Assembly (NCBI GenBank): GCA_964016885.1
Contig: OZ024747.1
Coordinates: forward strand, 6,262,001-6,326,000
Length of the DNA: 64,000 nucleotides
Reading direction: 5' to 3'
From: Eledone cirrhosa
Taxonomy: Eukaryota
Positions 1,516 to 50,305 of this stretch are shown one piece after another (within the stretch, counting starts at the first letter, position 1; every line of letters starts with the position of its first letter). The translations under genes and the position numbers were made by a program. Below the pieces are notes generated by a model. The model was not told the DNA's origin. It saw nothing but the letters and a program-made list of their open reading frames with translations, and did not search any database.

Positions 1516-1572
1516 TTGTCTGATGAGGTCATAACTGTTACATAACAGTTACCATTGAAATATGTATAACAG
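1516..1572 (+). ncRNA. Type I hammerhead ribozyme motif, short stem III, partly decayed
   Basis: TTGT-CTGATGA-stem II (TAACTGTT/AACAGTTA)-GAAA-T-ATGT-A-TA-ACAG; AATAAA at 1586. Confidence 0.65.
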
Positions 1573-3567: not shown

Positions 3568-10159
<6,592 letters not shown>

Positions 10160-10168
<9 letters not shown>

Positions 10169-11780
10169 TACTTAGCTTTTGTCGACCTGGAGAAAGCCTT
10201 CGACAGAGTCCCCCGCTCCATTATCTGGTGGGCTCTTAGAAAACTAGGCGTTGACGAATGGCTTGTGAGGGCTATACAAGCCATGTATAAAGAAACAGTC
10301 AGCAAGGTTAGAATTAACAACGAATATAGTGAAGAGTTTAGCGTAAAAGTTGGCATCCATCAGGGCTCTGTTCTCAGCCCCCTACTATTTATTATTGCCC
10401 TTCAGGCTATAACAGAGGAGTTCAAGACAGGCTGCCCGTGGGAACTCCTATACGCAGACGACCTGACACTCATAGCGGAATCAATGGCCGAGCTAGAGAA
10501 GAAATTCCAAACATGGAAGCACGGCCTAGAGTCAAAAGGACTTAAAATTAACCTGGCTAAGACCAAAGTACTAGTTTGTAGGAAAGAAAACAAGGCGGCG
10601 GTCCCTTCTGGGAAATGGTCGTGCTCGGTGTGTAGGAAAGGCGTAGGTAGAAACTCCATTTTATGTCCTAAATGCAAAGTATGGGTGCATAAAAGATGTA
10701 GTGGGATCACAGGTAAGCTAACTAAGAACATAGATTTTACATGTGGCCGGTGTTCTGGTGCAATAAGTAGCAGCAAGTGCCCACAAAATACTAGCTCTTT
10801 CAATTGCGCAGAGGGTTCTATAGAAATAGTGGACAGCTTCCGTTACCTGGGCGATAAAATCAGCAGTGGGGGAGGGTGCTCTGAAAGTACTGTAGCTAGA
10901 GTCAGAACTGGTTGGAAAAAGTTCAGAGAGCTTATACCACTATTAGCTGCTAAAGGGTTCTCCCTAAAAATGAAAGGCAGGTTGTACGATGCCTGCATAC
11001 GAACAGCAATGTTGCATGGCAGTGAGACCTGGGCATTGTGTGCAGAGGATATACGCAGACTAGAGAGGAACGAAGCTTGCATGCTCCGCTGGATGTGTAA
11101 CAGTAATATACGTAAAAGGCAAAGCATAAACGAACTAAGGAAAAAATTAGAGATAAGAGGGATCAGATGTTGTTTACTCGAGAGAAGGCTACGTTGGTAT
11201 GGACACGTGATGCGCATGAAAGTCGATAGCTGTATAACAAAGTGCAGGGCAATAAAGATAGACGGTAGCCACGGAATAGGCAGACCTAGAAAAACCTGGG
11301 ACGAGCTGATAAACTCCGACCTCACACACTTACACCTCTCCAAGACAATGTCACTGGACCGAGACCTTTGGCGGTACTCAGTAACAGAGAAGACCCGCCT
11401 TGCCAGTAGGCATCTCTAACAAAATACACCCCCGTCCCGCCACCACCCCCACCCCATCCACACCACCCCATTCTATGTAAAGTTATGTTGGTGCCGCGCC
11501 ATCCAGGCCGAAACAAATGAGATCGTGTAGGTGTCACGACAAAAAAACACACAGTCCACGCTGTAATGTGGCCGTGTAGGCAACACGGTAAAAACCTCCC
11601 AGACCCACACTGTAAATGTGGTTGGTGTTAGGAAGGGCATCCAGCTGTAGAAAACCTGCCAGACAGTCCTATGCGAGCAAGACAATCACTCTTGCCTCAA
11701 GTGGGACTACCCCCGTCCAAACCCATGCAAGCGTGGAACACGGACGTTAAACGTTGATGATGATGATGATGATGATGATG
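10160..11780 (+). mobile_element. 5'-truncated RTE-type LINE (RT C-terminal half with PHD-type finger, 3' UTR, (GAT)n tail)
   Basis: Open frame 10160-11419: [57 protein letters not shown]; 3' UTR motif ggttggtgttaggaagggcatccagc; ggacgttaaac(gat)n tail. Confidence 0.95.
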
Positions 11781-11946
11781 TAGGAGGTGAGTTTTATTGT
11801 AGCACAATAAAGCAATGCAGATATCGGATAAGTAGCACTCTACAGTTTGTAGGACTGGAGTATAAATAATATAACAGATCTACTGATATGTTGATTTTAA
11901 ACTGCACTATTCACAAGTCTGGTTTAACCTTCATATCATGTCTCCC

Positions 11947-12017
11947 TATTTTATCTGACGAAAATGCAAATGTTATTGCATGTTGATATTTGTTTTTGAA
12001 ATGCGCATAATAAAATA
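11947..12017 (+). ncRNA. Intact type I hammerhead ribozyme motif, short stem III
   Basis: Stem I TATTTTAT/ATAAAATA; core CTGACGA (11955-61); stem II AAA/TTT plus GCAAATGTTA/TGATATTTGT (with G-U pairs); GAAA (11998-12001); stem III T-GCGC-A; predicted cleavage AUA after 12009. Confidence 0.8.
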
Positions 12018-12176
12018 CATGGAACTCTATTAACCATCTTTTGATCTTATATATAAATATATACACACACACACATATATACACATACACACACACATAT
12101 ATATATACACACACACACATATATATACATACACACATATATATACATACACACACATATATATACATACACACAC

Positions 12177-22114: not shown

Positions 22115-22283
22115 ATAAGTTTATCCTGGGTTCAGTCGGGGGTAACCACAGTAAGTAAGGTGCTCAATACATAGCAAAGTATAAATGGCTAATATAGAAA
22201 TGGCTTCTACAGGACTAGAACCGTTTCATTCAGGAGAAATCATCAGGGCTTCCTGATGATTTCTCCTGAATGAAACAGTTCTA
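22113..22283 (-). mobile_element. Penelope-like terminal-repeat fragment with a foldback-duplicated hammerhead core
   Basis: Minus strand CTGATGA-TTTCTCCTGAAT-GAAACGGTTCTAGTCCTGTA-GAAGCC, then tail gtattgagcaccttacttactgtggtta; 32-bp inverted arms 22216-22247/22252-22283; lies in (TA)n. Confidence 0.6.
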
Positions 22284-38738: not shown

Positions 38739-38820
38739 CTGAAGATGGCATAAATATGGATCAACCTTGATACTGTATTTACTGCCAGAAACATGCATTT
38801 GCTAAAACATGTCAAGAATC
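38739..38820 (+). ncRNA. Hammerhead core with stems II and III; 5' strand of stem I missing
   Basis: CTGAAGA-TGGCA...TGCCA-GAAA-CATG...CATG-TC (GUC triplet). Confidence 0.6.
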
Positions 38821-45221: not shown

Positions 45222-46782
45222 ATCATCATCATCATCATCATCATCGTTTTACGTCCGTTCTTCCACGCTAGCATGGGTTAGACGGGTTGTCCTGTTGTGG
45301 GCAGTGTCTGGTCGGCTGACCATGCCTTGCTCATACAGGAACTGATCTGGCTTGATTTCTACAGCTGGATGCCCTTCCTAACACCAACCTCATTTACAGT
45401 GAGTGCTGGGTGCTTTTTCGTGGTGCCTACACGTCCACTTTACAGTGTGGGCTGGGTGCTTTTTTGCCGTGGCACCTCCACGACCACCTTGCGGTGGGGG
45501 GAGTGGGGGCATATTGTTTATATGCTTCAGCATGTACCCATGGGAGGTCGGGTACCCTGTATTACTGCGTGACGCCAGAAGTCACGGTCGTGTGTCATTG
45601 ACTTTGAGAGGTGTAGTTGGGTAAGGTCGGCTTTTATCACCTCATCCCAAGTCATCTTGGGTCTCCCCACTCCGCGGTTTCCATCAACTTCTAGTGCTCT
45701 GCACCTTTTTATGCAGCTGTCATCCTTCATACGCATCACATGTCCATACCAGCGTAACCGCCTCTCCTGCACGCAGCATTTGATTCCTCTTATGCTCAGT
45801 CTCTCTCTCAATTCATTTATGCTTTGTCGTTCACGTATATTACTGTTACACATCCATCGGAGCATGCAGGCTTCGTTTCTCTCTAATCTACGTAAGTCTT
45901 CCACCTTCAGTGCCCAGGTCTCACTACCATGCAACATCGCTGTTCGGATACACGCATCATACAGTCTGCCTTTCATTCTGAGGGAGAAGCCTTTTGCAGC
46001 TAGCAGTGGTAGTAGTTCCCTAAACTTCTTCCATCCCGTTCTTACCCTAGTTATTGTACTTTCTGAGCACCCACCTCCGTTGCTAATTCGGTCACCTAGG
46101 TAGCAGAAGCTGTCTACTGTTTCTACAGGGCCCTCCCAGAGATTGGTGGTACTTGTTTCCTGTGGCTGTTTGCTTGCTGTTTCAGCACAGCTGCTGCATG
46201 TGAATCCTACATTCTTAATTAAGCTTCCTGAGATCCCGCTACATCTCTTGTGTACCCATTGTTTGCATTTGGGGCAGAGAATGGAGTTCCTACCTACACC
46301 TTTCCTACATACTGAGCGAGGCCATTTCCCTGAGGGGATCTGGGTTCTGTTTTCTCGTCTACTTATAAGGACCTTAGTCTTTGTCATGTTGACTTTGAGG
46401 CCCTTTCTCTCTAGTCCCTGCTTCCAGGTTTGGAATTTATTCTCTAGTTCTACCATAGATTCAGCTATGAGTGCGAGGTCATCAGCATACAGGAGTTCCC
46501 ATGGGCATCCGGTCTTAAACTCCTCCGTTATTGCCTGCAGGACTATGCTGAACAGGAGAGGGCTAAGAACAGAGCCCTGGTGGACCCCAACCTGTACGCT
46601 AAATTCCTCGCTATACTCATTGCTAATCCTAACTTTGCTGACTGCTCCCCTATACATGGCTTGTACCGCTTTCACAAGCCATTCATCTACTCCTAGTTTT
46701 CTAAGAGCCCACCAGATTACTGCACGTGGAACTCTGTCAAAGGCTTTCTCAAGGTCGACAAATGCCAAGTAGAGTGGCTTGG
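45222..46782 (-). mobile_element. 5'-truncated RTE-type LINE, second subfamily
   Basis: ORF 45527-46816 with the same RT motifs ([24 protein letters not shown]); 3' UTR and (GAT)n tail. Confidence 0.95.
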
Positions 46783-46929
46783 TGTACCATATTGTAGCTC
46801 CCACACACCCAACCATAGAGCCATGCCAACTCTAAGGAAATGATCCTTTGGCCCAGGATAGCCCTACTTCCAAGGGATGTTTGGCAAGAAAAGAAAAAAA
46901 CAGAAAATAACAAAAAAATAAATAATATA

Positions 46930-50182: not shown

Positions 50183-50305
50183 CTGTACTTCTCTTGAGTC
50201 AACTGATGACTGGTTCTTGCGAGACACCCACTGAAGTTTGTTGTAGTTGAAAATAGCAAAAGACTGTTCCCAGTCAGTTATGAGAACAGCTTGGAATGTA
50301 TTTCT
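50183..50305 (-). CDS. Coding exon of a NIDO-domain protein (nidogen/SNED1/tectorin-like extracellular protein)
   Basis: Minus strand cttgcag|exon|gtatgt; 123 nt, phase 0-0; translates [41 protein letters not shown], matching the NIDO motif [19 protein letters not shown]. Confidence 0.92.

Follow-up and report, generated by a model that had tools for sequence, protein, structure and literature searches.

The motif at positions 11947-12017 (+) of the window, i.e. the whole 64,000-nt stretch of Eledone cirrhosa contig OZ024747.1 that was analysed, raises the question of whether a hammerhead ribozyme with every core base in place is a working ribozyme of its host or part of something else. The evidence set out below indicates that it very probably belongs, as a type I hammerhead, to the pseudo-LTR of a Penelope-like element (PLE), likely of the Hydra clade, and is carried in a truncated and ORF-less passenger copy for which cleavage is predicted only upon pairing with another one.

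The motif and the insertion that holds it

All the conserved core bases named in an earlier note on this DNA are present, including GAAA at 11998-12001, U16.1 at 12008 and A17 at 12009, as is the perfect 8-bp stem I, in which every pair is A-U (Table 1). The layout is that of a type I hammerhead, i.e. CUGANGA, GAAA, U16.1-H17 and three helices with the opening at stem I, with the qualification that stem III is predicted to form only between two copies. The cut position was derived from standard hammerhead numbering. The stem III palindrome is also present, and comprises 8 nt when A15.1 and U16.1 are counted. Stem II had been described as 13 bp with G-U pairs; three G-U pairs are indeed found, but the helix is not continuous, as three A-U pairs (the closing pair being A10.1-U11.1) are followed by a U-U mismatch (11965/11994), ten pairs that include the G-U pairs, and an 8-nt loop. 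In most family copies the prediction is instead a 4-nt loop and 2 additional pairs. A proposed lengthening of stem I by CATG/CATG was among two predicted extensions, but gains no support from variation among 45 distinct family copies, in which changes on the 3' side occur without a match on the 5' side. A pseudoknot between loop II and the CATG motifs was rejected, as loop and tail vary with no matching changes.

The bare core pattern had 5 matches in the window against 0.51 expected, while the pattern combining core, stems and palindrome had 1 match in the window and 0 in 200 composition-matched resamples. Monomer folding energy was no better than that of shuffles (z 0.05), and searches with the Rfam hammerhead models returned no match at gathering score or at E <= 10. 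The hammerhead class is not defined by matching an Rfam model.

Table 1. Features of the window at and around the hammerhead motif
Feature	Position	Strand	Remarks
5'-truncated LINE, RT + PHD finger, outside PLE	10163..11780	+	PF00078 E 1.4e-22, PF00628 E 1.7e-06
PLE tail, unit positions ~162-256	11778..11874	-	95.9% identity to L064 4951-5047
3' end of PLE pseudo-LTR, unit positions 1-167, inverted arm	11886..12052	+	88% identity to matching part of ORF-bearing L064
Stem I 5' strand	11947..11954	+	complement of 12010-12017; 99.7% of cells paired in 45 distinct family copies
Core C3-A9, CUGACGA	11955..11961	+	N7 is C here, U in ORF-bearing elements inspected
Stem II	11962..11997	+	3 bp, pyrimidine mismatch 10.4/11.4, 10 bp, 8-nt loop
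G12-A15.1, palindrome 12001-12008 (predicted dimer helix III), A17	11998..12009	+	predicted cut after 12009
Stem I 3' strand	12010..12017	+	pairs with 11947-11954

The hammerhead lies within a PLE fragment of 275 bp (11778-12052) that is itself ORF-less, and sits in the inverted arm, in an orientation opposite to that of the tail. This arm is 97% identical to the nearest fetched copies (5 of 167 positions differ) and terminates in a (TA)/(CA) microsatellite. The tail sequence leads into the ORF in full elements, and other copies are arranged alike. A tblastn search found no remnant of the PLE ORF in the 64-kb window.

On the other side the fragment is bounded by a LINE, which we take to be RTE-type, that terminates in (GAT)n at 11755-11780. 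Directly upstream of this LINE is a (AT)n-rich tract of 6.6 kb (3583-10160), and another LINE fragment with RT and PHD finger lies at 45527-46831 (-). Near-identical LINE copies also adjoin family hammerheads at loci L012 and L013, which suggests shared microsatellite targets.

The parent Penelope-like element and its relatives

The retroelement context was overlooked in the earlier note. Of nine regions picked for spaced copies, six (L061, L063-L067) contain the family ORF, whole or partial, between hammerhead repeats; L078 is a further ORF-bearing locus of the family. Full-length members have a single ORF of 800 aa, and 3,940 nt separate the two cut sites of L063, the first being ~215 nt before the start codon. 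Contigs of two sequencing runs, aligned to L063, contain the element but are uninformative on RNA ends or expression. Tandem and inverted repeats were found in the ORF-bearing elements L061, L063, L064 and L078, and inverted 5'-truncated copies adjoin full elements. The family therefore displays the layout of an EN+ PLE, i.e. pseudo-LTRs, tandem and inverted 5'-truncated copies, a tail and a hammerhead borne on the repeats.

Pfam identified no domain in the ORF or in five homologues, and PDB sequence searches with the ORF gave nothing meaningful; eighteen homologues were found at 29-38% identity. The best PDB match of an AlphaFold model of the ORF (pLDDT 72) was telomerase TERT (Foldseek E 3.5e-08), in agreement with the telomerase-like RT in a single ORF expected of EN+ PLEs. 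For the modelled C-terminal domain, the top three VIA matches were I-TevI (Z 7.9, rmsd 2.9, 89 aligned), T4 EndoII (Z 6.5) and UvrC GIY-YIG (Z 4.9), and Foldseek ranked the GIY-YIG family first, at best with E 0.1. The GIY-YIG endonuclease of EN+ PLEs was thus recovered at moderate scores, from the VIA matches and Atlas leads. The L064 ORF also contains a low-confidence insert of ~70-80 aa at residues ~575-655, rich in N, P, T and S, which is located between the RT thumb and the zinc linker and is absent from 13 aligned homologues.

The Hydra clade is defined, in the accessible text of PMC8557442, by DKT in place of DKG, a CxCX5C linker, CxxC/CxH around E and N, and insertion at (TA)n. In the L064 ORF, DKT, CxCX5C, CxxC-E and CxH are present at positions 123, 659, 759 and 787, with no CCHH-type Cys pair inside the GIY-YIG domain, and copy ends run into TA repeats in 41/47 and 23/25 cases, with overlapping loci counted twice. 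These sequence motifs and TA targets make the family a likely Hydra-clade PLE. Counter to this, the units measure ~3.9 kb, against 'generally <3 kb' for Hydra (PMC8557442), and the N-terminal RWK motif reads RWT or RWI in the family whereas it is RWK in most aligned database homologues.

As far as the accessible parts of the published sources extend, the hammerhead shares with those of Hydra-clade PLEs its type I form, its position near the 3' end and a short near-palindromic stem III, and the elements share the C-terminal endonuclease, DKT, CxCX5C and (TA)n targets (PMC8557442). Hydra-1_Obim, a Hydra member from Octopus bimaculoides, has a different hammerhead (Craig et al. 2021, PMC8557442), and the start of its ORF, as given in the supplement, is colinear by eye with the family ORF. 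The elements differ in their longer unit and in a tail of ~79 nt here compared with the usual 30-40 (PMC8557442 and preprint), and in stem II, which is 3-7 bp with no inner mismatch drawn in the 26 Hydra rows of File S2, whereas here it comprises ~13-15 bp and has two mismatched pyrimidines at position 4. Small palindromic helices III are also reported for PLE hammerheads of other metazoans, namely Aedes, Drosophila, Marsupenaeus and Saccoglossus (Cervera and De la Pena 2014, PMC4209133), and the location in pseudo-LTRs, the prevalence of single truncated copies, the close pairs on opposite strands, the palindromic helix III and the dimer model all recur here. Relative to the hammerheads in the accessible parts of that paper, the present ones have no extra base between A9 and 10.1, a stem I of 8 bp rather than 2-5, and, in place of G-C (2/51 sequence types), an A-U or G-U pair at 10.1-11.1 in 47/51. 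The published tables examined show no hammerhead that combines a long stem II with a conserved mismatch of C and a pyrimidine at the fourth position. The hammerhead motif itself is real and its type is already described in PLEs, of which the family here is a further member.

As judged from listings and text passages, literature searches found no paper on the stem II mismatch or on this family; Lunse et al. may cover similar variants. Within this genome, related ORF pieces were found at 5 of the 11 sister-family loci tested, with 46-66% identity in the main matches. Separately, L016:1-1251 contains the end of another GIY-YIG-like ORF and, after it, a minimal hammerhead whose stem II is short, and this motif recurs in L081 alongside a third small type. 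Several unrelated PLE hammerhead families are present in this genome.

Copy number and stem variation across the genome

Across the whole 3.0-Gb assembly, a tight pattern with intact core had 16,553 matches, compared with 0 for a reversed-pattern control, and a looser family pattern had 27,910. When the same flanks were searched with the core left free, 17,617 matches were obtained, of which 94% keep the core. Sister families with other stem III sequences contributed a further 53,761 intact-core matches. As the two sets are disjoint by stem III, the architecture occurs with an intact core at least 70,314 times, or once per ~43 kb at a count of at least 70,000. The exact 71-mer of the window motif is unique in the genome, and its combination of C7 and U10.4 is common to 64 copies.

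The claim of the earlier note that this is the best candidate for a catalytically active copy consequently holds inside the window only, where it is the one full-architecture match: 16,553 of the 17,617 family copies share its intact core, and the ORF-bearing elements have two tandem hammerheads where the window copy stands alone, with no same-family partner within 164 kb (the window and 50 kb on each side). The window copy differs from the majority of copies at three positions. It has U at 10.4, compared with C in 36/45 distinct family copies, and U at 11983, found in 6/45, which breaks a stem II pair and opens loop II. It is the best-formed motif of its window and average or slightly poorer genome-wide. 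As family cores are intact by default, an intact core in this genome is no sign of function, and caution is warranted in reading as meaningful what is the default state of a recent repeat.

Covariation was assessed within and across families. The within-family set comprised 45 distinct copies, after exclusion of nine indel-bearing matches among 107; 99.0% of cells pair and eight extra pair types occur, but two-sided changes were seen at 0/23 pairs and the shuffle control was not exceeded. The cross-family set comprised 51 sequence types anchored on the core (185 matches, 104 distinct), including 30 loci chosen by similarity to the window, with the core and a palindrome-like stem III imposed by the search pattern. 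Across these types all four bases occur at N7, and stem II positions 2, 3, 5 and 6 swap between A-U, G-C, C-G and U-A pairs. Positions 5-7 of stem II were unconstrained in the search patterns by which most of these loci had been retrieved. Here 130/153 cells hold Watson-Crick pairs, whereas 2,000 shuffles averaged 97.5 and never exceeded 115, in a control that ignores kinship between families. Relatives with compensatory stem changes, the absence of which would have counted against a hammerhead according to the earlier note, were thus found across families in stem II, with only one-sided changes within the family.

Position 10.4/11.4 is paired in 0/51 types, although this mismatch is partly imposed by the pattern, and stem I position 9 is paired in 5/51. 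When 10.4/11.4 was freed in sister families, a purine at 11.4 occurred in 791 matches and a base other than C at 10.4 in 2,490, compared with 53,761 with C and a pyrimidine. Common descent could explain part of the conservation of the stem II mismatch and of the break in stem I, and conservation of the mismatch may also point to a tertiary contact. A tentative extension, which we consider doubtful, is that the family represents an undescribed extended subtype, in which the stem II mismatch and the break of stem I after 8 bp would together form a rate-raising tertiary contact and the palindromes would restrict pairing by family. Any copy that is transcribed would then have abundant partners in trans among the at least 70,000 intact-core copies.

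Predicted dimer cleavage and competing readings

Folding predictions gave the active monomer fold a probability of ~5e-05 for each of five copies. When two copies were folded together, the palindromes were predicted to pair over 8 bp, unprompted, with the stem I strands exchanged, at -40.5 kcal/mol compared with -27.6 kcal/mol for two monomers, so the suggestion that the active form is a dimer is borne out in prediction. For the window copy, with C7, a mispaired form is predicted to be more stable than the fully open double hammerhead by 2.0 kcal/mol; in three U7 copies the gap is 0.6 kcal/mol. A predicted dimer of the window copy with a family copy from another subfamily reached -12.5 kcal/mol, and heterodimers with two sister-family copies were predicted to be weak (-3.6 and -2.7 kcal/mol, one copy each and a lead only). 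Lunse et al. (2016/2017) are said to have worked on dimer cleavage.

A possible mechanism follows from the full element, in which two hammerheads ~3.9 kb apart can be seen to flank the RT-endonuclease ORF. Within a tandem transcript, pairing of the 8-nt palindromes with each other would create a helix III common to both copies, and an exchange of stem I strands would complete two active sites; cuts ~215 nt before the start codon and ~1.3 kb past the stop would then release a unit-length RNA. The window copy presumably arose when an insertion beside a TA microsatellite left this piece as its inverted, 5'-truncated arm, and would be cut only if read-through transcribed on the + strand and met in trans by another copy. 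It is likely to have no function of its own.

Copies end at unit position ~177 or ~256, and with the cut at 124 the insertions extend ~53 or ~132 nt beyond it; the likely insertion template is accordingly RNA that was uncut or had been re-ligated. This is in agreement with the PLE hammerhead of the anole, which, in the accessible text of PMC11167929, cuts only with its protein and is dispensable for insertion in vitro.

The single window copy matters little. The family is of interest as a large natural set for the open question of what hammerheads do in PLEs. Young copies number in the tens of thousands and belong to several families, intact ORFs are available, insertions stop at either of two fixed ends beyond the cut site, and the conserved mismatch in stem II lends itself to direct testing.

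The same insertion ends bear on an alternative in which the structure is kept for another job, such as protein binding or the positioning of reverse transcription, and has little cleavage activity, or none unless protein assists. The protein dependence and dispensability of the anole hammerhead (PMC11167929) and the slow cleavage of published PLE hammerheads (PMC4209133) fit this alternative too, as far as the accessible parts of those papers go. It is nevertheless unlikely, as stems have been exchanged among families whose ORFs are only 46-66% identical in matched stretches and the full catalytic core has nonetheless persisted, with the caveat that the core was itself selected by the searches. 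Such a role modifies the PLE reading rather than excluding it.

A second alternative, that the window copy is an active ribozyme used by the host and cuts a read-through or intronic transcript at 12009, is very unlikely. The copy has its core and stems intact, a LINE on the same strand ends just upstream, and thousands of family copies could act as trans partners, one such dimer being that predicted at -12.5 kcal/mol. Against this, family copies have an intact core by default, the LINE upstream has lost its 5' part, the surrounding 164 kb holds no family partner, the U residues at 10.4 and 11983 are atypical, and the predicted gap to the mispaired dimer is wider than in the U7 copies.

Also very unlikely is a non-autonomous retrozyme or SINE-like unit of 150-450 nt propagated through a small circular RNA. 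The majority of the fetched copies lack an ORF and are short, and in the accessible parts of PMC7229834 such repeats typically have type I hammerheads with a palindromic helix III; the non-LTR retrozymes and the newt and axolotl satellites also resemble the present family in dimer cleavage, which is predicted here, and in very high copy number (126,247 in axolotl). Retrozymes, however, are short head-to-tail non-coding repeats (PMC7229834), whereas the same sequence here ends ORF-bearing PLEs. The short copies consist either of two inverted units placed head to head or of an inverted piece joined to a tail, no head-to-tail non-coding repeats of 150-450 bp were found in the 69 loci examined for arrangement, and inverted 5'-truncated copies are typical of PLEs, according to the accessible text of the preprint of PMC8557442.

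A chance match in AT-rich sequence, with which the unremarkable monomer folding energy and the lack of an Rfam match would be compatible, is refuted by the resamples, by the 16,553 copies against none for the reversed-pattern control and by the cross-family covariation.

Other core-like sequences occur in the window. A sister-family core at 1520-1568 (+), on the same strand and 10.4 kb upstream of the 11947 motif, has stem III TATGTA, C/C at 10.4/11.4 and a decayed stem I. At 22224-22275, small hammerhead-like cores form a head-to-head pair beside (TA)n and are likely a relic of another PLE family. Core matches at 50203-50252 and 38739-38791 (+) fail the stem and palindrome filter and are probably decayed or due to chance; the one at 38739 has a palindromic CATGCA/T stretch 3' of its GAAA.
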